Of a stretch of 64,000 nt of DNA, positions 17,946-36,479 are shown piece after piece. Location of the stretch: positions 2,334 through 66,333 of the forward strand of contig DATINP010000033.1 of the NCBI GenBank assembly GCA_035474135.1, in the 5' to 3' direction. Position 1 is the first letter of the stretch. The number at the start of each line of letters is the position of its first letter. This stretch comes from Chloroflexia bacterium. GTDB taxonomy: Bacteria > Chloroflexota > Chloroflexia > QHBQ01 > JADMIH01. The translations under genes and the position numbers were made by a program. The notes under the pieces were generated by a model, which had not been told where the DNA came from, did not search any database, and saw only the letters and a list, made by a program, of their open reading frames with translations.

Positions 17946-19415
17946 ATGCCGACCGCTACGGCCGGCCTGCCGCGTTGGGTATGGCCTCTGGGCATCGCGT
18001 TGGCGGCTCTAGCCGGCCTTGCACCTCCACTGGTGAGCCTGGGTGTACTGGTGGCCGGACTGGTTGTGTTCATCCTGCTCAAGAAGCCCTTGTGGGGAGC
18101 CTACGCCCTCGTGCTGAGCGTGCCCGTGCAGGATACTGTAAAACTGCCTGGCGGGATCAATGTCACGCAGGCGGCATTCGTGCTTGTGCTGGGCATCTGG
18201 TGGTTCTGGATGGCTCTGCGGAGCGACCGCCGCCTGCACATCACTCCCATCGGCGTGACTCTCCTGTTGTTCCTCACCTGCACCCTGCCCAGCCTGTGGG
18301 TGACCACCTCTCTACCTGACAGCCTCGCTGAGATCTCGCGCTGGATAGTGACGATCCTCTCCTACATCATCATCGTGAACTCGGTGCAGAGTCGACGCGA
18401 AGTAACGAGCCTTATTGTAGTAATGCTCACAGCGGGTATGTCCGAGGCTCTGCTAGGTCTTGTGCAGGCGTATGGCGGCCTCGGCCCGGCCAGTTTCAAC
18501 GTGGGCGGCCTGCTCACCCGAGCCTATGGAACGATCGGCGCGCCCAACTCGTTCGCGGGCTATATCAACATGAGCGTGCCTTTAGCATTCGCTCTCGCGG
18601 CCTACCACTGGGGCAAATGGGCCACCGCCCGCCGCGCCGCGCCATACCTTGACCGCCCCGACTTTATGTCATGGCAGCGTTTGCGCGTCCCGCTCCTCGT
18701 GTCCCTAGTGGCCTTTCTACTCTTCTGGACCGTGGTCACAAGCCTCTCGCGAGGAGCCTGGATCGGGCTGGCGTTTGGAGTGCTGGTGATGGTGTTGTCG
18801 CTCGGCCAGCGGGCCAAGGGCGCGATCACCGGACTGCTCGCTGCCCTGATCATACTCGCGGGCCTGACGGGGCTGAACGCGGTGCCACCCGTGATAGCGG
18901 ACCGCTTCACCCAGCTAACCAGCCAGTTGCAGATATTCGACCCGCGCGGCATCACCCCCAACCCCGACAACTACGCGCTAGTCGAGCGCATGGTGCACTG
19001 GATGGTGGCGGGCAACATGTTCCTCTCAAGCCCCATCGTGGGCGTAGGCATAGGCAACTTCAACACGCTGTTCAACAAGTTCGGCGTGCAGGGCTGGCCC
19101 TATTCTCGGGGCCATGCCCACAACTACTACCTAAATCTGCTTGCTGAAGTGGGCATCGTGGGCCTCACGGGCTACCTGATCATGATAATTACGACATTCG
19201 CGGTGGCCTACCGCGCCCTGCGCCGCGTGCGCGCACGCAAGGACCTGTATGGCGAAATGATAGTGATCGGTGCGCTGGGCGTGCTGGCCACCTTCGTCAC
19301 GCACAACTTCTTCGAGAACCTGCACGCCCTCAACATGGGCATCCAGTGGGGCGCGGCGCTTGCGCTATTCACTCTGGTGTGGCTCAGACCCGAACAGCCC
19401 GGGAAAGGAGCCTGA
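17946..19415 (+). CDS. O-antigen ligase/polymerase family membrane protein (second Wzy-like protein)
   Basis: about 12 TM helices; LSRGAWIGLAFGVLV and HWMVAGNMFLSSPIVGVGIGNF family motifs; ORF-track start 17892 would overlap UXS, internal ATG 17946 preferred. Confidence 0.65.
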   Translation: MPTATAGLPRWVWPLGIALAALAGLAPPLVSLGVLVAGLVVFILLKKPLWGAYALVLSVPVQDTVKLPGGINVTQAAFVLVLGIWWFWMALRSDRRLHITPIGVTLLLFLTCTLPSLWVTTSLPDSLAEISRWIVTILSYIIIVNSVQSRREVTSLIVVMLTAGMSEALLGLVQAYGGLGPASFNVGGLLTRAYGTIGAPNSFAGYINMSVPLAFALAAYHWGKWATARRAAPYLDRPDFMSWQRLRVPLLVSLVAFLLFWTVVTSLSRGAWIGLAFGVLVMVLSLGQRAKGAITGLLAALIILAGLTGLNAVPPVIADRFTQLTSQLQIFDPRGITPNPDNYALVERMVHWMVAGNMFLSSPIVGVGIGNFNTLFNKFGVQGWPYSRGHAHNYYLNLLAEVGIVGLTGYLIMIITTFAVAYRALRRVRARKDLYGEMIVIGALGVLATFVTHNFFENLHALNMGIQWGAALALFTLVWLRPEQPGKGA

Positions 19416-19416
19416 C

Positions 19417-20352
19417 TTGCGCTCACTCGTAACCGGCGCTGCCGGCTTTATCGGCTCCCATCTTTGCGAAACTCTGCTGGCGGCGGGACATGAGGTGGTG
19501 GGCCTCGACGCCTTCATCCCGTACTACCCGCGCGCGATCAAGGAAGCCAACCTGTCGGGCCCACGTGCCAATCCGCATTTCACTTTCTACGAACTTGACT
19601 TGCGAACCGGCGACCTGGCCCCTGCTCTTGAGGGTGTGGACGCCGTGTTCCACCTGGCGGCAATGGGTGGCCTGGTGCTTAGCTGGACGCACTTTGACCT
19701 CTACATGACCTGCAATATTCAGGCAACCGAGCGTCTGCTGGCGGCCATCCGGCAGACCGGGAAGGTGGACAAATTCATCTACGCCAGCACCTCCAGCATC
19801 TACGGCAGCGACGTGACAGGCCCCGAAACCGCCACACCCCACCCGGTGTCGCCTTATGGCATCACGAAGCTAGCGGGCGAGCATCTTGTGCAGGCTTACG
19901 ACCGCCAGTTCGGCGTCCCATCCACCATCCTGCGCTACTTCTCGGTGTACGGCCCGCGCCAGCGTCCCGACATGGGCTACTACATTTTCACGGACGCGAT
20001 CCTGCACGGCAAGCCGATTACAGTGTTCGGCGACGGCAACCAACTGCGCGGCAACACTTACGCCACCGACATAGCCCGCGCCACCCTCCTGGCCCACGAC
20101 AGGTTCGAGCGCGGCGCGATATACAACCTGGGCGGCTCGGAAGAAGTGAGCGCGAACCAGGTGATCGCCCTCCTGCAAGAGATCATCGGCAAGCGCACAG
20201 AGGTGCAATACGCCCCCGCCCGCCCCGGCGAGCAAAGCCGCACGCTGGCCGACACCACACTCGCCCAGCAACGCCTCGGCTTTGTGCCCCAGATGTCCCT
20301 GCGCTCGGGGTTGGAAGAGCAGGTGCGCTGGCAGACGGGTCTTAGCTCTTAG
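19417..20352 (+). CDS. NAD-dependent nucleotide-sugar epimerase/dehydratase
   Basis: TTG start 2 nt after the preceding stop; TGAAGFIGSHL Rossmann motif, YGITKLAGE (YxxxK); upstream part of the ORF-track ORF is the overlap with the previous gene. Confidence 0.8.
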   Translation: MRSLVTGAAGFIGSHLCETLLAAGHEVVGLDAFIPYYPRAIKEANLSGPRANPHFTFYELDLRTGDLAPALEGVDAVFHLAAMGGLVLSWTHFDLYMTCNIQATERLLAAIRQTGKVDKFIYASTSSIYGSDVTGPETATPHPVSPYGITKLAGEHLVQAYDRQFGVPSTILRYFSVYGPRQRPDMGYYIFTDAILHGKPITVFGDGNQLRGNTYATDIARATLLAHDRFERGAIYNLGGSEEVSANQVIALLQEIIGKRTEVQYAPARPGEQSRTLADTTLAQQRLGFVPQMSLRSGLEEQVRWQTGLSS

Positions 20353-21871
20353 ATCTACGACTCAGAATCGACCGGAAGGATGCAAGTTCCCCTGACGTGA
20401 ACGGACGCAGGAGGAGCAGCACCAGGCCGTATGCCAGTGCGAAGCCAATGCCTGCCCCCACGTAGAGCGCGAAGGCGGTGGTGTCTGACTTCCATTGCAC
20501 AAACAGCGACCAGCCCAGCCACATCAACGCGCCCGCAACCAGGCCCGCCACCAACGGCTTCCAGGCCAGCGCCACGACGGGCACAGGCCCGATAAAGCGT
20601 CCCACCCACACCAGGAACGGGCCGAGCAGCACCAGTTCGCTCAGCACCGTGGTCAGCGCGGCGCCGTTGATACCAATCAGCGGGATCAGCACCAGGTTCG
20701 CGATCACGTTGAAGGCGACCGTCAGCGCGAAAGCCCCCGTGATCAATCTCTGCTTGTCGAGCGCGATCAGCACGTACTGCGTGACCCCGTTCACAAAGCT
20801 AAAGGGTAGGAAGAAGATCAATATTTGCAGGGCGACAGGCGAGTCGGGCAGATAGATCTGCTTGCCCCCTGTCACTATCGTGATCAGCAGGGGCGCGAAC
20901 CACACGGTCATCACCACGATCAGCCCGGCAAGCACCAACAGCACCTTCAAAGCAAACCCGTACTCGTAGTTCAGGCGGGAGATATCGTCACGCGCGTGGC
21001 GGGCCATCCGTGGGAAGAGCGCCAGCGTCACTACGGGCGTGATCAGGAGCACAAAGTTGAGGTAGCTGTACGCCGCCTGGTACTTCTCCACGCCCAGGTC
21101 GCCCAGCACAGGCTGGATGATAAACTGGTCCACCCGAAAGAAAAGCCCCACCAACAGAGCGTTCAGCATCAGCGGCCAGCCCGTTTTCAGCAGGGCCACA
21201 GCCGCATCGCGACTTAGCCGCAGGCCTGCGACCGGCGCGCCCACCTCCGGGAAATCGCGCCGCAGGATACGTGCGAAATAGAGCGCGGTCGCAAGCGTGG
21301 ACAGCAACGAGGCCAGCGCCAACCCGATAATGCCCCACCCCAGCGCAAGCGCGCCCAGCCCCAACGCTACGTTCAGTACCGACGTGCCGATGCCCACCAG
21401 CGCGGGCACTGTCATGCGCTCGTAGGCGTTCAGCAAGGACGTAACCGTGCCGGAGAACGCGCCCGGCAGAAGGGACAGCGTGAGCACCACGACAGTCCAC
21501 GCTCCCGCCGTGCCCAGGTCGAACAGGCTAGTGTAAATCAGGATAAACAGACCCACAGGCACGAACAGCAAGAGGCTGATGAACAGACGCAAAGCCAGCG
21601 TCTGCCGGAAATCGTCCCGCACCGCCTCAGCCGACCCGCGCTCCTTGGCTACTTCGCGTGTTAGGAGTGTGCCAAGTCCCCACTCGGAGATCGTGCTTGT
21701 GTAAAGCAGAACGTAACCCGCCAGGAAGTAGGCCCCCAGTTCGCCGCCGCCGAGCGCGCGGTACAGCACCACCGCATACCCCAGCAGCAGCACCTTTGTG
21801 ACGATTTGTGCCATGAACGGGTTGAACGCATTTGACGCTACCCGCCGAGCCACTCCTACTTCGCTCTCCAT
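20342..21871 (-). CDS. polysaccharide biosynthesis protein / Wzx-type flippase (MOP superfamily)
   Basis: about 14 TM helices, length and hydropathy typical of Wzx/MurJ-like exporters; start ATG 21871 (TTG 21874 alternative). Confidence 0.7.
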   Translation of the reverse strand: MESEVGVARRVASNAFNPFMAQIVTKVLLLGYAVVLYRALGGGELGAYFLAGYVLLYTSTISEWGLGTLLTREVAKERGSAEAVRDDFRQTLALRLFISLLLFVPVGLFILIYTSLFDLGTAGAWTVVVLTLSLLPGAFSGTVTSLLNAYERMTVPALVGIGTSVLNVALGLGALALGWGIIGLALASLLSTLATALYFARILRRDFPEVGAPVAGLRLSRDAAVALLKTGWPLMLNALLVGLFFRVDQFIIQPVLGDLGVEKYQAAYSYLNFVLLITPVVTLALFPRMARHARDDISRLNYEYGFALKVLLVLAGLIVVMTVWFAPLLITIVTGGKQIYLPDSPVALQILIFFLPFSFVNGVTQYVLIALDKQRLITGAFALTVAFNVIANLVLIPLIGINGAALTTVLSELVLLGPFLVWVGRFIGPVPVVALAWKPLVAGLVAGALMWLGWSLFVQWKSDTTAFALYVGAGIGFALAYGLVLLLLRPFTSGELASFRSILSRRSKS

Positions 21872-21887
21872 CAAAACCTCTTTGTTT

Positions 21888-22009
21888 GGACCAGTGACCG
21901 GTGACCAGTGACCAGTGGCAGGTGACCGGTGACCAGTGCGTCATGCGTCATGCGTCATACGTCATACGTCATGCGTGACTTACGATCTAAGATCTACGAT
22001 CTAAGACTC
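21888..22009. repeat. intercistronic tandem-oligomer element B: (GTGACCA/GTGACCG)x7, (CGTCATG/CGTCATA)x5, (GATCTAA/GATCTAC)x4
   Basis: read directly; lies between the hypothetical-gene stop (22021) and the flippase start (21871). Confidence 0.85.
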
Positions 22010-22020
22010 TCGCCTTCGTC

Positions 22021-22536
22021 TTACCTGCCCAGCATTTGCAGCCCGATAATTAGCAGCACTGTCAGCATCATCAGCAGAATCGCGCCCATACCAGCGCAGC
22101 CCATAATAATTATGCTGTGCTGGGCTTTCTTTGCCCGCTGCGCACGCTCTTCGTCGAACACCACCTGCCCGGTCACTATGCCGTTATAGCGGTCGCCCAG
22201 CCCCCGCGCCTCCATGAGAGTCCGCATCGTGCCGAGATGCGCTTGCTCGTACTCGGCAAGGTCCTTCTTGGTACGCACGGGCGCGTTCCTGTTCGGCGTG
22301 TAGTTGGGCATCTCCTTCCACAGGTCGTACGCATCGGCGCCCAGGCTCTCTCCCTTGCCCGACAGCACGTCTTTGTACCGCTCCTGCCGGGCGGGGTCGC
22401 GACTGGTCAGCAGGAACATCACCGTTGCATCCCACTGCTCGCGCGAAGGCGGCCCCGCGCGCTTGTCGAGCGCAAAGGCGGCCCACTTGCTGTACAGTTT
22501 ATCGAATGGATCGCTGGTTTGTTCGTTGTCTGCCAT
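22021..22536 (-). CDS. hypothetical protein with C-terminal transmembrane anchor
   Basis: 171 aa, soluble N-terminal part and one C-terminal TM helix (IIIMGCAGMGAILLMMLTVLLIIGL); embedded in the glycan locus. Confidence 0.4.
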   Translation of the reverse strand: MADNEQTSDPFDKLYSKWAAFALDKRAGPPSREQWDATVMFLLTSRDPARQERYKDVLSGKGESLGADAYDLWKEMPNYTPNRNAPVRTKKDLAEYEQAHLGTMRTLMEARGLGDRYNGIVTGQVVFDEERAQRAKKAQHSIIIMGCAGMGAILLMMLTVLLIIGLQMLGR

Positions 22537-22612
22537 AGTGTCCTATTAACTTAATGACCTGAGTACGCCGAAAATGGACAGCTTTTCCATAGCCCATTCG
22601 GGCACATTTTCC

Positions 22613-22665
22613 GGACGACGCTTGACTTACGATCTAAGATCTACGACTCGTTTTACGACCGACGA
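22613..22665. repeat. intercistronic tandem-oligomer element C: GACGACG, (GATCTAA/GATCTAC)x3, CGACTCG/CGACCGA
   Basis: same 7-mer families as element B; overlaps the last codons of the GT4 gene (tail RKTSRRS). Confidence 0.7.
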
Positions 22666-23851
22666 ATCTCTCGTACACTTGCAGCACCTGTTCCGCAGCT
22701 GTCTCCCATGTAAACCGAGCGGCTCTTGCCCGACCCGCATCGCTCAGGGCGCGCCGCAGGTCTGCATCACCAAGCAAGCGTGAAATGCCGCCCGCGATAC
22801 TCTCTACCGAGCGCGCATCCACCACGAGAGCCGCTTCCCCCACTACCTCAGCCAGCGCATCATCCTCGGACACGAGTACGGGCGTGCCGCACGACATCGC
22901 CTCGGCGACCGGCAGGCCGAAGCCTTCGTAGAGGCTGGGGTAAGCGAACACCTCGGCCATCCTGTAAAGCAACGGCAGGTCGCGTTCGTCCACGTAGTCC
23001 ACGAACACCACGCGCGCTCCTGTGCTCGCACTCTCGCTGTTCACCCGCGTACCCGCCGCCAGTATAGGCTCGTACAACCAGCCCTTGCGTCCTGCCAGCA
23101 CCAGCGCGACTTTCTCATCGCCCGTCATGGCGCTGACAGCCTGCGCGTAGCCCTCAATCAGCCGAACCAGGTTCTTGCGCGGCTCAAGAGTACCGACATG
23201 CAGCACAAACCTCTCAGGCAGACCGAGTTCCTGCCGCAAGCGAGCACTTTGCGCTTGCTCGTCCACAATCTCTCCGCGCCCCGCTGCCCTGAACCGCTCG
23301 TCTACTCCATTATGCACTACGGTTACTTTCTCCGGGGCGACGCCCATCAAGCGCACAAGGTCACGCTTCGTCTGCTCTGACACGGCGATGATCCCGTCTG
23401 CCCGGCGTACTGCCCCGGGCACAGTCTTGCTCAGGAACCCTGCAAGGCCCGGCTCGGCGCACTCCGGTACGACCAGAAACGACAGGTCATGCACAGTAAT
23501 TATATCGGCACCGGTACGGTGAGGCGGCGACACGAAATCAGGCGAATGGAGCAGATCGCAGCGACCGGTGAACAGGTCTACAGGGATAGGCAGCCGCAGC
23601 CGTTGCCACACCGCAAACATCTGGCGTACCGAAAGCGGCACAGCCACTCCCCTGAAGTTGGGGTGCGCCTTCATAAGTGCCCGCGCTTGCTGCTCCTCAG
23701 GCGTGCCGCGCGGCAGACCTCTGTTCGCGTAAAAGAGAGAGTAGCGATTGTCAGCGTCGAGCCGCGCCAGCGCCGCCACCAGTGACCGCGTATAGCGGGC
23801 CACCCCCGCGCCGGGATATATGCCGGTTGTATAGTCCAGAGCAATATGCAT
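22634..23851 (-). CDS. glycosyltransferase family 4 (GT-B fold, group 1)
   Basis: EGFGLPVAEAMSCGTPVLVSE EX7E motif and GT4 architecture; 405 aa. Confidence 0.85.
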   Translation of the reverse strand: MHIALDYTTGIYPGAGVARYTRSLVAALARLDADNRYSLFYANRGLPRGTPEEQQARALMKAHPNFRGVAVPLSVRQMFAVWQRLRLPIPVDLFTGRCDLLHSPDFVSPPHRTGADIITVHDLSFLVVPECAEPGLAGFLSKTVPGAVRRADGIIAVSEQTKRDLVRLMGVAPEKVTVVHNGVDERFRAAGRGEIVDEQAQSARLRQELGLPERFVLHVGTLEPRKNLVRLIEGYAQAVSAMTGDEKVALVLAGRKGWLYEPILAAGTRVNSESASTGARVVFVDYVDERDLPLLYRMAEVFAYPSLYEGFGLPVAEAMSCGTPVLVSEDDALAEVVGEAALVVDARSVESIAGGISRLLGDADLRRALSDAGRARAARFTWETAAEQVLQVYERFVGRKTSRRS

Positions 23852-23854
23852 GGT

Positions 23855-23923
23855 GAACGACGACGGACGGCGGACGGCGGACGACGTACCACTCAGTCGT
23901 CTGTCGTCTGTCGTCCGTCGTCC
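23855..23923. repeat. intercistronic tandem-oligomer element D: (GACGACG/GACGGCG)x4 then (CAGTCGT/CTGTCGT/CCGTCGT)x5, an imperfect hairpin
   Basis: read directly; lies between the UPF0104-gene stop (23931) and the GT4 start (23851). Confidence 0.8.
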
Positions 23924-23930
23924 TTTCTCA

Positions 23931-25256
23931 CTACTTCCGTCTGCTTAACAGATACAGGATGATGCCGCCCGCGATCAGACTCCAATAGTTGATCAGCCTG
24001 TCGAGCAGAGCTATGGACACGGCCAGATTGTGGTTGTCAACGAACAGGGTCATCGCCAACACCACCGCACCTTCGACCAACCCCGCGCCACCCGGAGTGA
24101 GGGGCAGGGTCGTGAGCAAAGAACTTAGCAGGGCGATGAAGATCACAGCTGAGATGGTCACCTCGTGCGCGTCAAGCGAACGCGTCACGAAAAAGAGCCT
24201 GCCCGCCTCGCACAGCCAGATCAGAATAGTATATCCCAGCAACACGGGCAGGCTGCGGCGCTTGAAAGAGCGCAAAATGCCCTGCTGGAACGACGCGAAC
24301 TTGCTCTTGAACCGACTGGGTACAAACCTGAGCATCAGGTCACCGAAGAAACGCAGGCCCACCAATCCCACTATGAGGGCAATCACCATGAGCGCGCCCA
24401 CTATCATCACCAGCCCCAGGTTGAAATCGCTGCTATTGGCGTCGCTCGCCAGGCGGTTACTCACCAGTGTGAATGAAGCGGCCAGCAGGCCAAACAACAC
24501 CAACAGGTCGATCACCCTCTCGGCGAGGATCGTTCCTATAGTGCTGGAGAAAGACACACCCGAGTTGCGCTTGAGCAGGTAGCTTCGGTATGCATCGCCC
24601 AGTTTGGCGGGTACGATGCAGTTGACGAACCACGACAGATAGATGATCTCCACTAACCCGTTCACATTGGGTAGATGGACGTCGGGCTCTTTGTCCAGGC
24701 CCACATTCTGTATCAACTGCTTCCAGCGCAGGCCGCGCAACCAGAAAGCCGAGTAGTAAATTACGAAGCCCAGCAGAAGCATGAGCGGGTTCGCGGTGAG
24801 CATGGTCGCCCACGTATCGGCGGGGTTGATATCGAGGCGAGTGAAAATGAAGATCAGTATGCCGAGAGCAAGCACAAAGGAGATAATAGTGCGGAAGTTG
24901 AGCAGCTTGTGGCTCAACCAGTTGCGGTCTTCGGCTATATCTTCTACGGGCCTCGACAGGACAGGCGCCTCGGCCTCCATGGCAGCCTTTTCAGCTTCGG
25001 AAATAGGCGTTTCGCCGGTGTCAACATCGATCTCGGGCAGATCGATCAGGTCGTGCAGGCGGGGGGATGTGGTCGTGTAAGCTTTATCACCATCTTGGGG
25101 TTCCGACGAGCGAAACCTGGCATTTTGCAGCGACTCTTCAGCACCTGGCTCACCCTCTACATCCTGCTGGGTGCTGTCTGACTTTTGGTATCCATCACCG
25201 GTTGTGTGTGTACCGGCGCGCAACCTGGGATCCTCTATGACGGGCCTCCACTCCAA
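23931..25256 (-). CDS. flippase-like (lysyl-phosphatidylglycerol-synthase TM-region / UPF0104 family) membrane protein with disordered N-terminus
   Basis: about 100-aa acidic low-complexity N-terminus then 8 TM helices with the conserved K...GD...R block (AKLGDAYRSYLLKRN) of this family. Confidence 0.5.
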   Translation of the reverse strand: MEWRPVIEDPRLRAGTHTTGDGYQKSDSTQQDVEGEPGAEESLQNARFRSSEPQDGDKAYTTTSPRLHDLIDLPEIDVDTGETPISEAEKAAMEAEAPVLSRPVEDIAEDRNWLSHKLLNFRTIISFVLALGILIFIFTRLDINPADTWATMLTANPLMLLLGFVIYYSAFWLRGLRWKQLIQNVGLDKEPDVHLPNVNGLVEIIYLSWFVNCIVPAKLGDAYRSYLLKRNSGVSFSSTIGTILAERVIDLLVLFGLLAASFTLVSNRLASDANSSDFNLGLVMIVGALMVIALIVGLVGLRFFGDLMLRFVPSRFKSKFASFQQGILRSFKRRSLPVLLGYTILIWLCEAGRLFFVTRSLDAHEVTISAVIFIALLSSLLTTLPLTPGGAGLVEGAVVLAMTLFVDNHNLAVSIALLDRLINYWSLIAGGIILYLLSRRK

Positions 25257-25370: not shown

Positions 25371-27011
<1,641 letters not shown>

Positions 27012-27058
27012 CGACTAAGGGGAGTGGATCTGCACGATAGCATAACCACTCCCTTCTT

Positions 27059-27301
27059 TCAGCGCCTGCGGACCACACGCGTGCCCTTCGCGCTCTCGTC
27101 GCTGTCAATCACGGCGCGGCTTCTGTCGTGAATAGTGTCGGTCGAATCACGTACTTCTTCGCCCGTGCGCTCTCGCCAACGCTCTGTTTCATCGCTCGCG
27201 TTCTGCATATCACCGCTCATGTCTCTCTGTCTGCGGTTTCGAGCACGACCTACATCTTTGCTGTCTTTTGTGTTACCTTCGTTCTGAACTTGTTCGCTCA
27301 T
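27059..27301 (-). CDS. small highly charged hypothetical protein
   Basis: 80-aa ORF rich in R/D/E/S with no hydrophobic segment; coding status uncertain. Confidence 0.3.
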   Translation of the reverse strand: MSEQVQNEGNTKDSKDVGRARNRRQRDMSGDMQNASDETERWRERTGEEVRDSTDTIHDRSRAVIDSDESAKGTRVVRRR

Positions 27302-27472
27302 GGGGCGTACCTCTCTTATGTAAACTGGTATTTGGCGTGGGTTGTGTGATCAACGAACCGCCTGCTGTATACTGAAAAAGCACGTTACATGCCAGTAGCC
27401 GGGCTGTCCTACTACACATCGCCGCTGGCACAGGACTTGCACATATCCAACCTGCAGGCGCTCCTCTAATAT

Positions 27473-28552
27473 TTGCCCTCTCAGCACACTATGTCTATCA
27501 ACGAGCCCGACCTACAACCAACAGATAACGATCCTTCGTCCGCACCCGCATCTGACCTGGAACCTGATGTGGATAGCGATAACGAGATCGCGCTTACCGC
27601 CGACCTTCATTCCACGCCTGTAGTTGAAGAAGATACCCACTCAGCACCTATAGATTATCCCGCAACCCCCGTCCCGCTTACAGCAGAAGAAGTTCTGCTC
27701 GCTGAAGAGAAAGCAGCGCAGGCTGAACAACCGGCCACACCGGCTCCCCCGGTGGCACAGGCAGCACAGGCTGCGCAAACGGTCGTGGGCAGCGCAAAAC
27801 AGGCTGCCCAGCAGGTTACCGCTGCCGTTCAGCAAAGCGCTCAAAAGATCACCGTACCCCCTCGACAGGCGATCTATCGAGGTAAACGGTTCCTGGCGAT
27901 TTACGGGGGATTGTCCGGCGCCGCGGCTATTGTGGCCCTGCTGGCACGTAAGCACCGTTACTTCGTGGGCGATATAGGCATCGCCCACATCATCCAGAAC
28001 CCCAAATCACGCCTGTACAATGCCCTCATGCACGCCGTAAGCGAGCTCGGCTGGCGATGGATAAGCGTGGGCACGAGGGCATCAGTCACCACGCTTATGT
28101 GGGCGGCGGGATTTCGCATGGAGAGCGCGTTCACCCTCTCGACCTGGTCGGGCGATGTACTTACGGGCCTGATCAAGTCGCGCGTACTACGCCCACGGCC
28201 CACCAGGGACCTTGTGCGCGTGGTGAGCCAGTTGGGCGAGGCCAGTTTCCCCTCGGGGCATGTCGTACACTACGTGACCTTCTACGGCTTCCTGTTCTAC
28301 CTGGTCTTTACCCACCTGAAGAAGCGATGGTTCCGCACGGCTCTGCTCACACTTATGGCGGGCTTGATTCTGCTGGTAGGGCCTTCGCGTGTTTATATGG
28401 GGCACCACTGGCCCTCAGATGTGGGCGGGGCCTATCTGGTGGGCACACTCTGGCTTGGCCTTATCATAATCGCCTACATCGAGACCAAGGCCAACTACAC
28501 GCTCAATTCCCAGCCGCCATTCTTCATTAAGCGAAACGCTCAGCTTTCGTAA
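27473..28552 (+). CDS. PAP2-superfamily membrane phosphatase with long disordered N-terminus
   Basis: PAP2 motifs KSRVLRPRP, PSGH, SRVYMGHHWPSD; about 150-aa Ala/Gln/Pro-rich N-terminal region. Confidence 0.75.
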   Translation: MPSQHTMSINEPDLQPTDNDPSSAPASDLEPDVDSDNEIALTADLHSTPVVEEDTHSAPIDYPATPVPLTAEEVLLAEEKAAQAEQPATPAPPVAQAAQAAQTVVGSAKQAAQQVTAAVQQSAQKITVPPRQAIYRGKRFLAIYGGLSGAAAIVALLARKHRYFVGDIGIAHIIQNPKSRLYNALMHAVSELGWRWISVGTRASVTTLMWAAGFRMESAFTLSTWSGDVLTGLIKSRVLRPRPTRDLVRVVSQLGEASFPSGHVVHYVTFYGFLFYLVFTHLKKRWFRTALLTLMAGLILLVGPSRVYMGHHWPSDVGGAYLVGTLWLGLIIIAYIETKANYTLNSQPPFFIKRNAQLS

Positions 28553-28588
28553 ATACCGGCTATTCGATTCCCAGCCGGCAACGAAAAG

Positions 28589-28621
28589 GATCGCCCGTCG
28601 GTTTTTGACCCTCGGGCGATC
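28589..28621. terminator. bidirectional stem-loop between convergent genes
   Basis: GATCGCCCG / CGGGCGATC 9-bp stem with a T5-containing loop. Confidence 0.5.
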
Positions 28622-28656
28622 CCTCTAAAATCCCTGGTGTGCCTTGCGGCCAGAAA

Positions 28657-29217
28657 CTACAGGTCGGCAGAACCTATTGCATCGTCAGCATCGTCCGCGA
28701 GATCATCAGCTGCGTTCGCCAGGTTACCGGCCGCGTCGTCTGCGGCGCCCGCCAGATCGTCCACAGCGCCACTGGCTCTGTTCGACAGATCATCTAAGGC
28801 ACCTCCCACGTTATCGGCTGCATCATCTGCTGCGCCACGTGCTCTATCGAGAGTGTCGTCGGCCGCCCGGCCCAGATCGCCTGCCGCGCCTCCGATGTTG
28901 TCGGCAGCGTCATCGACGGCACCGCGCGCATTATCAAGGGCGTCGTTGGCCGTCCTGTCGAGATTGTCGGCGGCATCGCTTGCCATACCCCCCACGTTGT
29001 CTGCGGCATCCTGAGCAGCATTCGCAACGTTATCGGCAGCGTCGGTGGCGGTATCTTGCGCGCCCCCGAAGGCACCGCTAATACCTTCGCCTATCTTGTG
29101 GAAGAAATCCCCGATCTTGTCACCGAGGCTCTCGCCCGCATCCGAAACTGTATTCGCTGCGTCGTCGACTGCCTGTCCGGCGTTGTCCAAAGCGTCATCA
29201 TAGTTATTATCGTCCAT
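28657..29217 (-). CDS. acidic Asp/Ala-rich repeat protein with 11-residue periodicity (function unknown)
   Basis: start at ATG 29217 with AGGGGAA RBS; about 13 consecutive 11-mers of the type DAADNVxxxAx; 33-nt periodicity visible in the DNA. Confidence 0.5.
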   Translation of the reverse strand: MDDNNYDDALDNAGQAVDDAANTVSDAGESLGDKIGDFFHKIGEGISGAFGGAQDTATDAADNVANAAQDAADNVGGMASDAADNLDRTANDALDNARGAVDDAADNIGGAAGDLGRAADDTLDRARGAADDAADNVGGALDDLSNRASGAVDDLAGAADDAAGNLANAADDLADDADDAIGSADL

Positions 29218-29420
29218 GAGTGTTCCCCTTTTCACGATTTGTGTGAGGTCAAATGGCCATTGCGCGTGGCACTGAAAATTCACTAAGGCAAGCCGCTATC
29301 ATCAGGCTCATTGTACCTATTTCCCTATTGGGCGACAACTCACCCTTACCAAAGTACCGCACGCTTCCGCATGCTTATCCCTTATACTAGTGTCAGCAAA
29401 CCTCGGGAGATATATCGTAA

Positions 29421-30737
29421 ATGCAAGATCCGAACGGTCAACCTGGTGCGCCGCAGCAAGGCGGTCCGACTCCACAGCCCAATAACTGGTACGGGCAACC
29501 CGTGCCACCACAACCACCCAATCAACCAAACCCGCCCTATAGCATCAACAAGGAGCCGCGCGCCCCTATGAGCAGCAAGGCACGCATCGCGCTGGCGATA
29601 GTGGCGTTGGTGGTGCTGGCGGGCCTCGTATTGCTGGCTGTCGCAGGACAGCTATTCATGTTCCTCGAAATCGGCATAGTGTTCGTGCCGCTGGCCGGGC
29701 TGGCGGCTCTTGCCTACGTCGGGGCACGCACCCCTGCGGCCTCGATAGGAGCCTATCTACTCCTGGTGTTCACAGGCATCGGAGTCCTTTTTAACTCCCT
29801 CACCTATATACTGTTCGGCGTGGTCAAGGATTGGGACAAGTTCAACGACCTGTTATCCAATCCCACAGGCGTCGACCGCGCCACCATCCTTGACATATTC
29901 TCTCCGGATGCGGGGCCGCGCCTTCTCCTGGGGGTACTGCTTCTCTTTATCGCGGCTATTTTATCGGCGGCAATGCTCGTCAAGCCCGTGCGCAAAGCGG
30001 TAGCGCGCATTATGCCCATTGACCCCGACAACTTCGTCCACAAGATAGCCCTGTCCATCCTCACGCTGATCCTGCTCACTTCGTTTATCCCGCTGATTGT
30101 GCTGGGCGGCATTCCGCCTTTACTCACACTCGTAACAGGAGCGGGCAACGGTGCACTAAACAACGCTCTCAGTATCGGCCCGGAAAGTCTTGTATACCAG
30201 TTCATCTGGACCATACCCGCGGCCCTCGTTGCGGCGGGTTGGCCCATCGTGCGCACCCTCCGCGCCGCCTTCGTCCGGTTGGGGTTTGTGCGCCCCAGTC
30301 TCACCCAAGTCGGCTTCGGTGTCGGCTTCGGACTGGCGCTGGCCGCCATCGCGGCTTTCGTTATCGATCCCGGCATCAATGCCATATGGCAGTCACTCGG
30401 GTGGCCCACAACTGACGCTAATGCATTCAACCAACTGCTCAGCGACGTGGTCACACCGCTTGGCGCTGTGCTTATAGGGGTAACAGCAGGCGTGGGCGAA
30501 GAGATGGCTGTGCGCGGCCTGCTCCAGCCACGTATCGGCCTTATCGCCTCCAACCTGGTGTTTACCAGCCTCCACGCCTTCCAGTACGGCCCCGACGCGC
30601 TTCTGAGCGTATTTGTAATTGGCCTGATCCTCGGCATCGTCCGCGCTCGCTCCAATACCACCACCTCGGCTATAGTTCATGGAGTGTATGACTTCGCGCT
30701 CGTGATATCAAGCATCATCTTCGTTGTAAACCCATAA
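29421..30737 (+). CDS. CPBP-family (CAAX protease / Abi) intramembrane metalloprotease with Pro/Gln-rich N-terminus
   Basis: multi-TM; motifs GVGEEMAVRGLL (EExxxR) and FTSLHAFQYG, HGVYDF; N-terminal 50 aa are PQ-rich. Confidence 0.7.
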   Translation: MQDPNGQPGAPQQGGPTPQPNNWYGQPVPPQPPNQPNPPYSINKEPRAPMSSKARIALAIVALVVLAGLVLLAVAGQLFMFLEIGIVFVPLAGLAALAYVGARTPAASIGAYLLLVFTGIGVLFNSLTYILFGVVKDWDKFNDLLSNPTGVDRATILDIFSPDAGPRLLLGVLLLFIAAILSAAMLVKPVRKAVARIMPIDPDNFVHKIALSILTLILLTSFIPLIVLGGIPPLLTLVTGAGNGALNNALSIGPESLVYQFIWTIPAALVAAGWPIVRTLRAAFVRLGFVRPSLTQVGFGVGFGLALAAIAAFVIDPGINAIWQSLGWPTTDANAFNQLLSDVVTPLGAVLIGVTAGVGEEMAVRGLLQPRIGLIASNLVFTSLHAFQYGPDALLSVFVIGLILGIVRARSNTTTSAIVHGVYDFALVISSIIFVVNP

Positions 30738-32208: not shown

Positions 32209-33267
32209 ATGCAATATAAAGACTATTACAATACGCTGGGCATCAAGAAAGGCGCTTCCGAAAAAGAGATCAAGTCGGCATATCGTAAGCTGGCTCGCAA
32301 GTTCCACCCTGACCTGAACCCCAACGACCGCGAGGCCGAGGCCAAGTTCAAGGAGGTAAACGAGGCCTACGAGGTGCTGGTTGATCCCGAAAAGCGCAAG
32401 AAGTACGACGAGTTCGGCTCCGAATGGGAGAGCTACCAGCATACCCAGGGTACGCCGGGCGGGTTCGACTTCTCGCAGTATTCCCAGTCCTACGGCAACG
32501 GAGGGGCGGGTGGCGTTCGTTACACCACTACGGGAGGCGAAGGCGCCGAGGACTTCTCCGACTTCTTCGAGATGCTCTTTGGCCGAGGCTCACGCGCAGC
32601 AGGCGCTAGTCCCTACTATTCGGGCGGGCGCGCTCGTACAATACCCCGCGTGGGCGAAGACTATGAGCATCGCCTGGACGTCACCCTTGAAGAAGCCTTC
32701 ACGGGCACACAGCGTGTGCTACAGATGGACGTGCCGGAAGGATGCCCCACCTGTAACGGCACGGGCGTGGTTGGCAACAAAGTGTGTCCTACCTGTAACG
32801 GCACGGGCACTGTATCGCGAACCAAGCGCCTGGAGGTCAAGATTCCGGCGGGTGTACACACAGGGTCACGAGTGCGAGTCAGCGGCGAAGGCGGCTCAGG
32901 GTCGGGCGGGGGCGGACGTGGCGATCTCTATTTGAAGGTCAGCGTTCTGCCCAATGCGCGCTTCGAGCGCAAAGGCGACGACCTGTACACGAATGTCCAG
33001 ACCCCCGCCTACACAGCCATACTTGGAGGCGAGGTAGAAGTACCCACTCCTAAAGGCACGAGACTTGCTCTGAAAATACCGTCAGGCACGCAGAACGGAC
33101 GCACCTTCAAGCTTACCGGCCAGGGGATGCCCAACCTGAAGCAGCAAGGCAAAAGAGGCGACCTTTACGCTCGCATCGAAGTACAGCTTCCTACCCAGTT
33201 GGACGAGCGTGAAAAGCAACTTTATGAGGAGCTGCAACGTATATATAATGAGCGAGTGGGAGGTTAA
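32209..33267 (+). CDS. dnaJ: DnaJ-family chaperone (J-domain, G/F region, a single CxxCxGxG pair, C-terminal substrate domain)
   Basis: J-domain with HPD (KFHPDLNP), Gly-rich region, CPTCNGTG and CPTCNGTG only (two of the usual four zinc motifs). Confidence 0.85.
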
Positions 33268-33269
33268 GT

Positions 33270-33713
33270 ATGAGTACTGAAACCAACCATGGACTCGAAA
33301 AGAGGGTAGGGCCAAAGCAGGAGGAAACACGCAAGGACCGCTCCCACGCCACATCTGAAGCGCGAAAACGGCAGAATGCCACTGTCAATGCCGAAGGGCA
33401 TCCCCGCTACGTGATCAGTATAGCGGCCCAAATCCTGGGAGTACATCCACAAACGCTCAGGCTGTACGAGCGCGAAGGGCTTGTCGAACCGCAACGAAGC
33501 GGTGGCAAAATCCGCCTTTACTCCGAGCGCGACATCGAGCGGGTACGTTCGATAATGCGGCTCACCAACGATCTAGGGGTCAACCTTGCGGGCGCAGACG
33601 CCATCCTTTATATGAGAGAGCGAATGCTCAGGCTCTATGAGGAAATGGATCGCATGCGCGAAGACCTTCTGTCCGAGTTGGAAGAGTTACGCCGCGAACT
33701 CGATGTTGAATAG
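33270..33713 (+). CDS. hspR: MerR-family heat-shock transcriptional repressor HspR
   Basis: MerR-type HTH (YVISIAAQILGVHPQTLRLYEREGLVEPQRSGGKIRLYSERDIERV); 2 nt after the dnaJ stop with GGAGG RBS; clpB downstream, as in actinobacterial HspR regulons. Confidence 0.65.
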   Translation: MSTETNHGLEKRVGPKQEETRKDRSHATSEARKRQNATVNAEGHPRYVISIAAQILGVHPQTLRLYEREGLVEPQRSGGKIRLYSERDIERVRSIMRLTNDLGVNLAGADAILYMRERMLRLYEEMDRMREDLLSELEELRRELDVE

Positions 33714-34025
33714 TGGTATAGTAGATGATAGGCGATTGCCGTCGCGGACGTTCGTGGTATGATTGCCCACCAGTCGATACCGCGCCCACCTCGTGCAAAT
33801 CAATAATCCCCCCGGTCGTTCAGGTTATACTACCCCTATTCCCATTACCCCTACACGCACAGCATCCGGCCACCCGCAAAGGTCATACCACCTACGGCAT
33901 AGCATAAGATACACAATAAGAGGTACACAACACTTAACCCAGGTAAGCATAGCATGGATGTAGAAAAGACGAATATAATAGAGACTACTTCTCGGAATAT
34001 GAGAGAGAAAAGAGAGAGCTGAACC

Positions 34026-36479
<2,454 letters not shown>

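Follow-up and report, generated by a model that had tools for sequence, protein, structure and literature searches.

Long 11-mer amphipathic helices that coat or protect surfaces recur among group 3 LEA (LEA-3) proteins, synucleins, apolipoproteins, and perilipins, and to our knowledge the well-studied cases rely on basic or charge-balanced polar faces. The 11-residue consensus of LEA-3 proteins is Lys rich and roughly charge balanced (TAQAAKEKAGE type). Bacterial examples of this group (LEA_4) include Deinococcus DosH and an Acinetobacter LEA protein (PMC10295645, PMC8096337). Perilipin 4 (Plin4) forms a giant amphipathic helix from 33-residue repeats (i.e., 3 × 11 residues) (PMC5889406, PMC8064757), and a change in charge from +1 to -1 per 33-mer abolished its targeting to lipid droplets unless hydrophobicity was raised (PMC5889406). 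Here, we analyzed a 64,000-nucleotide stretch of contig DATINP010000033.1 (GenBank assembly GCA_035474135.1) from a Chloroflexia bacterium, referred to below as the window, which carries a gene for a 186-residue Asp-rich repeat protein (the acidic protein). Judged by its sequence, the family of this protein is an orphan by homology and by design lies within the 11-mer (3-11) amphipathic-helix class.

An 11-residue rhythm throughout the protein

The open reading frame (ORF) given in the initial annotation (positions 28657 to 29217) and its quoted sequence exactly match a minus-strand ORF of 186 amino acids. The extent assigned there to the repeats (about 13 copies over residues 45 to 186) needed correction, as the 11 units listed span residues 59 to 179. 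We divided the coding sequence as follows.

28657 to 29217, minus strand: coding sequence of the 186-residue acidic repeat protein (ATG at 29217 to 29215, TAG at 28659 to 28657; ORF and translation)
29128 to 29217, minus strand: residues 1 to 30, acidic N-terminal helix MDDNNYDDALDNAGQAVDDAANTVSDAGES with two D-x-x-D-N-type units (alignment)
29056 to 29127, minus strand: residues 31 to 54, Phe/Ile/Gly-rich amphipathic segment LGDKIGDFFHKIGEGISGAFGGAQ (alignment, invariant columns)
28660 to 29055, minus strand: residues 55 to 186, Ala/Asp/Gly/Asn hendecad region of DAADNVxxAAx units with 7-residue register shifts (autocorrelation, Fourier analysis)

The protein contains 49 Ala (26%), 43 Asp (23%), 23 Gly (12%), and 15 Asn (8%) residues. 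Acidic residues (45 Asp plus Glu) far outnumber basic ones (8 Lys plus Arg, with only 2 Lys in 186 residues), giving a net charge of -37. The isoelectric point of 4.05 returned by Biopython is the floor of the algorithm, and our claim is limited to a value of about 4 or less.

Residue-identity autocorrelation had maxima at lags of 7, 11, 18, 22, 29, 33, and 40 residues (z scores of 4 to 7 against 2,000 shuffles; 7.3 at lag 11), and the Kyte-Doolittle hydropathy spectrum had one dominant peak at 3.64 to 3.65 residues (power, 440; shuffled maximum, 42 ± 11). Both values are far above chance and bear out the 11/3 amphipathic-helix periodicity proposed earlier. The orthologues described below have a hydropathy period of 3.63 to 3.66 residues, a single coherent phase, and a power 6 to 14 times the shuffled maximum. 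With a loosened unit pattern (D-[AVLIMTG]-[AVLIMGT]-[DNG]-[DNT]-[AVLIM]), 10 matches were found, at residues 8, 19, 59, 70, 81, 92, 103, 132, 161, and 172. The spacings between units (11, 29, or 40 residues) each keep the helical phase; therefore, the rhythm spans the whole protein, with occasional 7-residue register shifts. The units at positions 8 and 19 lie in the N-terminal helix, whose hydrophobic-moment phase equals that of the remaining protein. Across about 140 residues, the sliding hydrophobic-moment phase at 11/3 drifted only from 95 to 21 degrees, and the apolar stripe is therefore essentially straight.

Tandem Repeats Finder detected no DNA-level tandem repeat at the locus, and in the five cleanest units (residues 59 to 113) different codons are used at 64% of identical residues. 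The repeats are therefore old and have been maintained at the protein level.

Conservation of the gene and its expression signals

Initial genome and metagenome scans with patterns built from two sequences yielded no relatives; the orthologues were reached only via the neighboring gene for a CPBP protease and a more degenerate pattern. With the CPBP neighbor as a query, we obtained 12 loci, all from metagenome-assembled genomes (MAGs) of uncultured Chloroflexia/Chloroflexota. Four of these (L003, L004, L006, and L014) have an orthologue that occupies the equivalent position and points the same way, i.e., convergent with the gene for the lipid phosphatase PAP2 and divergent from CPBP. Two metagenome contigs (L015 and L016, the latter short) carry close relatives of the L003 form in the same gene order. 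The resulting orthologue set has seven syntenic members from uncultured Chloroflexia MAGs and soil metagenome contigs, the source organisms of the MAGs being soil and rhizosphere Chloroflexia. A Logan contig (L001) was 100% identical to the window and hence uninformative.

A partial homologue (P0001, on contig L002) covers residues 1 to 66. Contig L002 (ENA scaffold BAND20-1_SAMN13481370_METAG-scaffold_338866; 647 bp) is chimeric from about nucleotide 370: its first ~370 nucleotides resemble the acidic-gene locus, and the remainder is high in G+C and encodes an unrelated TPR-like peptide in another frame. Thus, the annotated 131-residue P0001 is an artifact beyond residue 66.

The L003 and L015 proteins are 87% identical (synonymous divergence [dS], 0.52), and the ratio of nonsynonymous to synonymous divergence (dN/dS) was 0.13 in the sense frame; the antisense frame in this register gave 1.7. 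Indels between close relatives measure 7 and 11 residues, so length changes come in steps that preserve the helix phase. The orthologues range from 144 to 251 residues in length, with net charges of -30 to -37 and Gly contents of 12 to 18%; Pro, Cys, and Trp are absent from all seven. The N-terminal helix is 12 residues shorter in L006 and L014.

The sense frame has the best codon-usage score among the six frames (0.349 bits per codon; zero stops). The following expression signals flank it.

29223 to 29232, minus strand: Shine-Dalgarno sequence AAAAGGGGAA, 5 nucleotides upstream of the ATG
29310 to 29338, minus strand: sigma-70-type promoter TTGTCG-17 nt-TACAAT (consensus scan), implying a 5' untranslated region of ~85 nucleotides
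28580 to 28622, minus strand: intrinsic-terminator-like hairpin GGGAUCGCCCG...CGGGCGAUCC with 10 G+C-rich pairs, followed by UUUUCGUU

An alternative GTG start at 29283 gives a longer version of the ORF (208 residues) on mechanical grounds only. The ATG is favored because it is preceded by AAAAGGGGAA and this pair is kept in every orthologue; a Shine-Dalgarno sequence of the GAAAGGGGA type lies at an equal distance from the ATG in the window, L003, L004, L006, and L014, and also in L002. The protein is probably well translated. About 85 nucleotides upstream, a TTGxxx-17-TA(C/A)AAT block is kept in all six aligned upstream regions. The terminator-like hairpin is situated 3' of the stop codon, between the acidic gene and the convergent PAP2 gene (predicted minimum free energy of 28560 to 28660, -45.1 kcal/mol; z = -4.3 versus shuffles). 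It was overlooked by the terminator scan, its loop being longer than 8 nucleotides. A search of positions 27000 to 29500 against Rfam (E ≤ 1) gave zero matches, hence no known RNA element in the leader.

Long antisense ORFs rich in Ser, Ala, Pro, and Arg (28637 to 29014 and 28644 to 29081, both on the plus strand) have equivalents in L003, L004, L006, and L014. The antisense frame is open because the Asp, Ala, Gly, and Asn codons of the gene lack stop-complementary triplets. A gene caller could mis-annotate these ORFs (dN/dS of ~1.7).

We conclude that the acidic repeat ORF is a real gene under purifying selection and not a shadow ORF. The refutation considered earlier, i.e., that the ORF might be unconserved or merely repeat driven, thus fails.

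Comparison with described families

No model of the curated libraries (Pfam, NCBIfam, PADLOC, and PHROGs) reached its threshold for the acidic protein, in agreement with the earlier statement that no described family has this repeat. The Pfam Apolipoprotein model (PF01442) scored 28.7 bits against a cutoff of 90, and its best orthologue match (E = 3.7e-7) was also sub-threshold. YtxH (PF12732) scored 19.9 bits against 37.5, over profile positions 33 to 70 only, and was found below threshold in four of the five orthologues searched (best E = 7e-7). The two Phasin models (PF05597 and PF09361) fell below their curated scores (15.6 versus 28.8 bits and 14 versus 24.9 bits, respectively). Weaker sub-threshold matches were to ApoLp-III, CsbD, TMP_3, and the Senescence (spartin lipid-droplet) domain; Perilipin gave no Pfam match. 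The NCBIfam matches were Ag473 (29.4 versus 100) and ZorA (16.7 versus 190), and the sole PADLOC and PHROGs matches were to helical tail parts of ZorA and tape-measure proteins (15 to 27 bits). A defense-system or phage origin was rejected, given only these weak helix matches and a genomic context that does not fit.

Against the PDB, a profile of five orthologues matched the ZorA tail (8vvn_C; E = 1.7e-7), apolipophorin-III (1eq1; E = 3e-6), the tape-measure protein 6v8i, yeast Hsp12 (2l9q), and SHERP (2x43). When 1.84 billion representatives were searched exhaustively with phmmer, 181 sequences passed E ≤ 1e-3. Except for P0001, these were long repeat proteins with 17 to 38% identity, including a 7,875-residue firefly protein, a 7,162-residue thrips protein (NCBI name, "Perilipin-4, partial"), a beetle protein, a Thermoguttaceae "apolipoprotein A1/A4/E family protein," and metagenomic proteins of AQNVGNWAGQT-type 11-mers with sub-threshold DUF7211 matches. 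This heterogeneity indicates that the matches reflect a common 11-residue amphipathic design and not demonstrable descent. Word-indexed searches that used either the whole protein or a profile of its N-terminus as the query retrieved P0001 only. Among the sequences and models searched, the family is lineage restricted and fits no described family.

Among the metagenomic proteins, P0008, P0010, P0012, and P0014 (800 to 1,050 residues; ENA metagenome contigs of 10 to 16 kb) share an N-terminus MGKYYVAGIPFDSENSLKHYG with a sub-threshold DUF7211 match and a conserved C-terminus ...GVSDAFWAKFTADGGTREEYERDWR. They carry dozens of near-neutral 11-mers (AAQNVGNAVGG/NWAGQTAQNVG) and are possibly phage tape-measure-like.

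A conserved Phe-rich segment

The most conserved part of the family is not the repeats but residues 31 to 54 (LGDKIGDFFHKIGEGISGAFGGAQ), a segment that the initial annotation had overlooked. K34, G36, F38, G43, and I46 are invariant, and the family motif reads K-[VI]-G-x-F-[FL]-x-x-[ILV]-G-x-G-I-x-x-[AV]-[FL]. Bulky hydrophobic residues are clustered only here, at spacings that also follow the helical phase, and the segment is the only part kept in the partial homologue P0001. In every comparison, N-terminal identity was at least as high as repeat identity.

The core of the motif (G-x-F-[FL]-x-x-[ILV]-G-x-x-[ILV]) was present in 14 of 153 retrieved proteins versus 0.2 after shuffling, a count biased by the fact that the 153 proteins were mostly phmmer hits, i.e., preselected by similarity to the query. 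Motif-bearing phmmer hits (P0002, P0004, P0021, P0082, P0012, P0014, P0023, P0083, P0125, and P0144) comprise insect giant 11-mer-repeat proteins (firefly and pollen beetle), an "apolipoprotein-like" protein of a planctomycete, and repeat proteins from metagenomes that have a weak DUF7211-like N-terminus. The firefly protein contains 30 copies of GKFFSGLGDKISGK, and the beetle segment GGFFSKLGSSIKSAFGG is identical to GDFFHKIGEGISGAFGG at 11 of 17 positions (pairwise BLASTP, 27.7 bits; E = 1e-4 for this single comparison only). Bearers of the longer form G-x-F-F-x-K-[IL]-G-x-x-I-x-x-A-F-G-G include one thrips protein named Perilipin-4-like. A 45-residue motif profile retrieved nothing from a large protein database at E ≤ 1. 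The recurrence of the motif may reflect convergence on an interfacial-helix solution or a shared module. It is improbable, in our judgment, that the family represents an unrecognized class of polyanionic 3-11 helices switched by cations or dehydration, with the longer motif as a genuine shared surface-anchor module; if true, such a module would connect the amphipathic-helix coat proteins of bacteria with those of animals, through either descent or strict convergence.

Helix faces, predicted fold, and location

On a 3.64-residue helical wheel, the window protein has an apolar face of ~160 degrees that is dominated by Ala (32 of ~60 residues in the sector), with Val, Leu, and Ile at its center. 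The polar face is built from Asp, Asn, and Gly; its sector holds 36 Asp, and 53% of the residues there are acidic, in line with the strongly acidic face described earlier. The interface sectors contain Ala, Asn, Gly, Asp, Ser, and Thr and very few Lys or Arg residues. This two-face partition is common to all seven orthologues.

AlphaFold2, run on the single sequence as a monomer, predicted one unbroken helix from residue 4 to residue 185 (mean predicted local distance difference test score [pLDDT], 90; 92 to 97 over residues 55 to 186) of ~27 nm in length. Foldseek retrieved no PDB structure similar to the model, an outcome to be expected of a single rod. All five orthologues tested fell on the disordered side of the charge-hydropathy boundary, and helix-disfavoring residues (Asp, Gly, and Asn) make up ~43% of the window protein. 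From these two features, we infer that the protein probably folds conditionally.

The N-terminus of the window protein (MDDNNYDD...) is without a hydrophobic stretch, and none of the seven orthologues has a signal peptide or hydrophobic span, their N-termini being acidic. A cytoplasmic location is therefore the most likely. These features make a secreted or mineral-binding role unlikely and argue against the binding of extracellular mineral surfaces that had been suggested for the protein. A role as a DNA mimic or antirestriction protein was also considered; we found nothing in its support.

Resemblance to and departure from known helices

The description of the protein as LEA-like or apolipoprotein-like holds as a design analogy; as a statement of membership, it does not (LEA_4, no match; Apolipoprotein, 28.7 versus 90 bits). 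Like LEA-3 proteins, the acidic protein has a tandem 11-residue rhythm and a long amphipathic helix, is rich in Gly and devoid of Cys and Trp, is by prediction disordered in the hydrated state and helical once folded, and comes from a habitat that dries out. It differs in that it is not Lys rich (1% Lys), has a net charge of -37 and not a rough balance, and combines an Ala-dominated apolar face with an extra conserved Phe-rich N-terminal segment and a grand average of hydropathy (GRAVY) of only -0.43. The basic interfacial residues of class-A apolipoprotein and LEA-3 helices are missing from its wheel.

With Plin4, the protein shares the 3-11 periodicity and a weakly hydrophobic face of small residues in which length would offset weak hydrophobicity, and insect Plin4-like giants are its strongest phmmer hits. 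However, it has 186 residues versus ~1,000, is bacterial, lacks a PAT domain and a four-helix bundle, and carries about -6.6 charges per 33 residues versus +1 in Plin4. The similarity to proteins of the Plin4 type is at the level of periodicity (19 to 26% identity), and homology is not demonstrable. The exchangeable apolipoproteins (apoA-I/A-IV/E and insect apolipophorin-III) have comparable 11/22-residue amphipathic helices and give weak profile matches; the acidic protein differs from them in lacking Pro punctuation and a class-A basic interface and in being predicted as one rod rather than a helix bundle.

Hendecad coiled coils and long rods, such as the ZorA tail and tape-measure proteins, resemble the protein in their a-d-e-h-compatible apolar pattern, straight stripe, and extended unbroken helix. 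It differs from the latter two in having no MotA/ExbB domain and no phage or defense context, and from coiled coils in its very high Gly and Asp contents and Ala-only core. The stress proteins of the YtxH, CsbD, and phasin types are likewise small, charged, and helical, but the acidic protein is below all of their cutoffs, far more acidic, and without the N-terminal transmembrane anchor of YtxH. Overall, the family departs from the 11-mer class in three respects visible in the predicted helix: an almost purely acidic polar face, an Ala-dominated apolar face, and the conserved Phe-rich N-terminal segment.

Genomic context

The local gene order is IMPDH (plus), a small charged hydrophilic protein (minus), PAP2 (plus), the acidic gene (minus), CPBP (plus), and MFS (minus). 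The neighbors named in the initial annotation, a PAP2 lipid phosphatase and a CPBP protease, were confirmed by domain scores of 67 and 41.7 bits (CPBP/Rce1-like), respectively.

In six related loci (L005, L007, L009, L010, L012, and L013), PAP2 directly abuts CPBP without the acidic gene. The three loci with the most similar CPBP carry the gene, as does the most distant one (L014), which implies that the gene either was gained early and lost repeatedly or was transferred within the clade. Upstream of CPBP (window positions ~29345 to 29395, plus sense), we observed a conserved CCAAAGTACC-N(about 25)-ATCC(C/T)TTATACT element that is also present in L003, L004, L006, and L014. Blocks similar to this CPBP-side block (AAAGTACC...TTTATACTG) occur in L005 and L007, which lack the acidic gene. 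The block is probably the CPBP promoter with a predicted upstream binding site. Given that the PAP2-CPBP pair and blocks resembling the CPBP-side block are both found without it, the acidic gene is an independent, patchily distributed transcription unit, and its product is not an obligatory partner of PAP2 or CPBP.

Both neighboring enzymes have long low-complexity N-terminal extensions before their catalytic domains. In PAP2 (gene at 27473 to 28552, plus strand), the extension is ~190 residues long and rich in Ala, Gln, Pro, and Asp; in CPBP (gene at 29421 to 30737, plus strand), it is ~50 residues long, with Pro, Gln, and Gly abundant. The orthologous loci have comparable Pro/Gln-rich leaders. 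Farther out (19270 to 25256 and 32209 to 36479), the window contains an upstream envelope-glycan cluster (NAD-dependent epimerase, Polysacc_synt flippase, GT4 glycosyltransferase, and an LPG_synthase_TM-like protein) and a downstream proteostasis pair (DnaJ-type cochaperone and a ClpC-like double-AAA ATPase with a Clp_N domain).

The second small hydrophilic gene (27059 to 27301, minus strand) is found between IMPDH and PAP2 in almost every related locus (L004, 2455 to 2979; L006, 7319 to 7660; L007, 8191 to 8592; L009, 5897 to 6223; L012, 1754 to 2050; L013, 2553 to 2831; L014, 7615 to 7938; L015, 2145 to 2504) and encodes a highly charged protein of 80 to 132 residues. Most forms start with MTSWNRGKENEE...GEVEQGIDNLGDTLSGKQ; those of the window and L015 have a different, shorter N-terminus and share a central ...DMSGDMQNA.DE..RWRERTGEEVRDSTD. 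The protein fell into no curated family and gave only weak CsbD, MT0933, and YtxH hits. Its homology to the acidic protein was rejected (hhalign probability, 5.6%) despite weak hidden Markov model hits.

Proposed role and alternative explanations

We tentatively propose that the acidic protein is a conditionally folding polyanionic surface shield or hydration protein of the cytoplasm, with an LEA-type role. In a dilute cytoplasm, charge repulsion (-30 to -37) and 12 to 18% Gly would hold the protein largely unfolded, hydrated, and loaded with counter-ions. Lower water activity, higher ionic strength or Mg2+/Ca2+, or an available apolar surface would trigger folding into a nearly straight 3-11-type helix of ~27 nm. 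The Phe-rich segment and the Ala/Val stripe would then adsorb on a membrane or an exposed hydrophobic protein surface, and the carboxylate face would point outward as a hydrated, cation-binding brush that separates surfaces. The protein would thus serve as a molecular shield or hydration buffer in soil bacteria facing drying. By analogy, it possibly works like LEA-3 and other 11-mer amphipathic-helix proteins while being a member of none of those families.

Several observations are consistent with the proposed shield. Surface-active or stress helices account for all of the best sub-threshold matches (Apolipoprotein, YtxH, phasin, ApoLp-III, and CsbD), the PDB profile matches include apolipophorin-III, yeast Hsp12, and SHERP, and the top phmmer hits include the thrips "Perilipin-4." The gene lies between two membrane enzymes, beside the small hydrophilic gene, and near envelope-glycan, DnaJ, and ClpC-like genes.

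Other observations weigh against this proposal. LEA_4 (PF02987) did not appear among the matches of the window protein (E ≤ 1) or of the five orthologues (E ≤ 0.1). The Gly content (12.4% in the window protein; 14 to 18% in the orthologues) exceeds the 6% that characterizes hydrophilins, but the hydrophilicity index does not exceed 1, the value used for hydrophilins, and GRAVY ranges from -0.32 to -0.54 (-0.43 in the window) because Ala makes up ~26% of residues. With -6.6 net charges per 33 residues, repulsion from anionic phospholipids is to be expected, and in Plin4 a shift from +1 to -1 per 33-mer suffices for the loss of droplet targeting unless hydrophobicity is raised (PMC5889406). The promoter of the acidic gene resembles a housekeeping sigma-70 promoter, with no obvious stress promoter, and the absence of the gene from six PAP2-CPBP loci means that it is dispensable for that pair. 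The high single-sequence pLDDT may merely mirror an idealized pattern. Finally, the apolar positions also fit a hendecad a-d-e-h core, and self-association explains the stripe equally well.

This last point leads to the first alternative, in which the Ala/Ala/Ala/Val stripe forms the a-d-e-h core of a straight, non-supercoiled homo-oligomer that acts as a cytoplasmic rod-like scaffold or spacer, its charge neutralized through the binding of Mg2+/Ca2+, polyamines, or a basic partner. In the unit D-A-A-D-N-V-x-x-A-A-x, residues A, A, V, and A follow one another at intervals of 1, 3, and 4 residues, and the apolar positions of the unit (2, 3, 6, 9, and 10) include the hendecad a-d-e-h set. The almost constant phase along 27 nm, the indels quantized at 7 and 11 residues, the unbroken AlphaFold2 helix, and the best solved-structure match, to the pentameric coiled-coil tail of ZorA (8vvn_C; E = 1.7e-7), with tape-measure helices besides, would all suit such a rod. 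We nevertheless regard both the oligomer and its neutralization as rather unlikely, since Gly (12 to 18%), Asp (23%), and Asn (8%) are at levels unusual in stable coiled coils, the core is nearly all Ala with one larger residue per 11, an in-register homo-oligomer would bring chains of about -37 charges each side by side without basic positions to complement them, and charge-hydropathy predicts disorder.

A phasin- or perilipin-like coat on wax-ester, triacylglycerol, or polyhydroxyalkanoate (PHA) inclusions, with the Phe-rich segment as an anchor and a repulsive negative surface, is quite unlikely. Such a role of the protein would account for the sub-threshold Phasin, Phasin_2, Apolipoprotein, ApoLp-III, and Senescence matches and for the insect giant repeat proteins among the strongest phmmer hits (one NCBI-named Perilipin-4), and its apolar face, of the Ala/Val type and free of bulky residues, is similar in design to that of Plin4 (PMC5889406, PMC8064757). 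The adjoining PAP2 lipid phosphatase could supply diacylglycerol. However, zero family matches exceeded thresholds, no PHA-synthase or WS/DGAT domain was found among the 13 neighboring proteins scanned (not the whole window), and six related loci keep the PAP2-CPBP pair without the acidic gene. Moreover, Plin4 requires a balanced or positive charge or more hydrophobicity, at odds with -6.6 per 33 residues here.

We consider it distinctly improbable that the protein is a cytoplasmic Ca2+/Mg2+ buffer or store of low affinity and high capacity, built on a stripe of Asp at i/i+3 and Asn at i+4, with the helix as a by-product. The concentration of 43 Asp and 15 Asn on one face, the 10 occurrences of the D-x-x-D-N unit, and the retention of -30 to -37 net charges in all orthologues with basic residues nearly excluded could be read this way. 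No known Ca-binding motif or family was matched, and ion buffering needs no strict amphipathic phase, apolar stripe, or Phe-rich segment, yet all of these are conserved.

Very improbable is a partnership with the neighboring membrane enzymes, in which the protein would be a precursor processed by the CPBP protease or a regulator of PAP2. In all five loci whose sequence extends to the CPBP side, the acidic gene sits between PAP2 and CPBP and is divergent from the latter (the two short metagenome contigs cover the PAP2 side only). On the other hand, PAP2 abuts CPBP without the acidic gene in six loci, the gene has its own promoter and terminator as an independent unit, a block resembling the CPBP-side block is also present in L005 and L007, and the protein has no leader-peptide or CAAX-like feature. 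Lastly, that the ORF is a shadow or nonfunctional by-product of a repeat-rich stretch is refuted for practical purposes: a largely open antisense frame is likewise seen in the window and all orthologues, but this is a consequence of Asp/Ala/Gly/Asn codon composition, and the dN/dS values of the two frames, the conserved Shine-Dalgarno sequence, ATG, and promoter, the top codon score, and the conserved nonrepetitive N-terminal module all speak for the sense frame.

Significance of the family

The finding would be modest if the acidic protein were merely another lineage-specific hydrophilic stress protein. As it stands, the family keeps the 11-mer geometry under purifying selection with the polar face swapped to almost pure Asp/Asn/Gly and a conserved Phe-rich putative anchor added. 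If the protein folds and binds surfaces as we tentatively propose, the design would work with opposite electrostatics, presumably through counter-ions, and the protein would offer a compact 18-kDa model of helix formation induced by cations or dehydration. It would then also be a candidate drought-survival factor for abundant, uncultured soil Chloroflexia.

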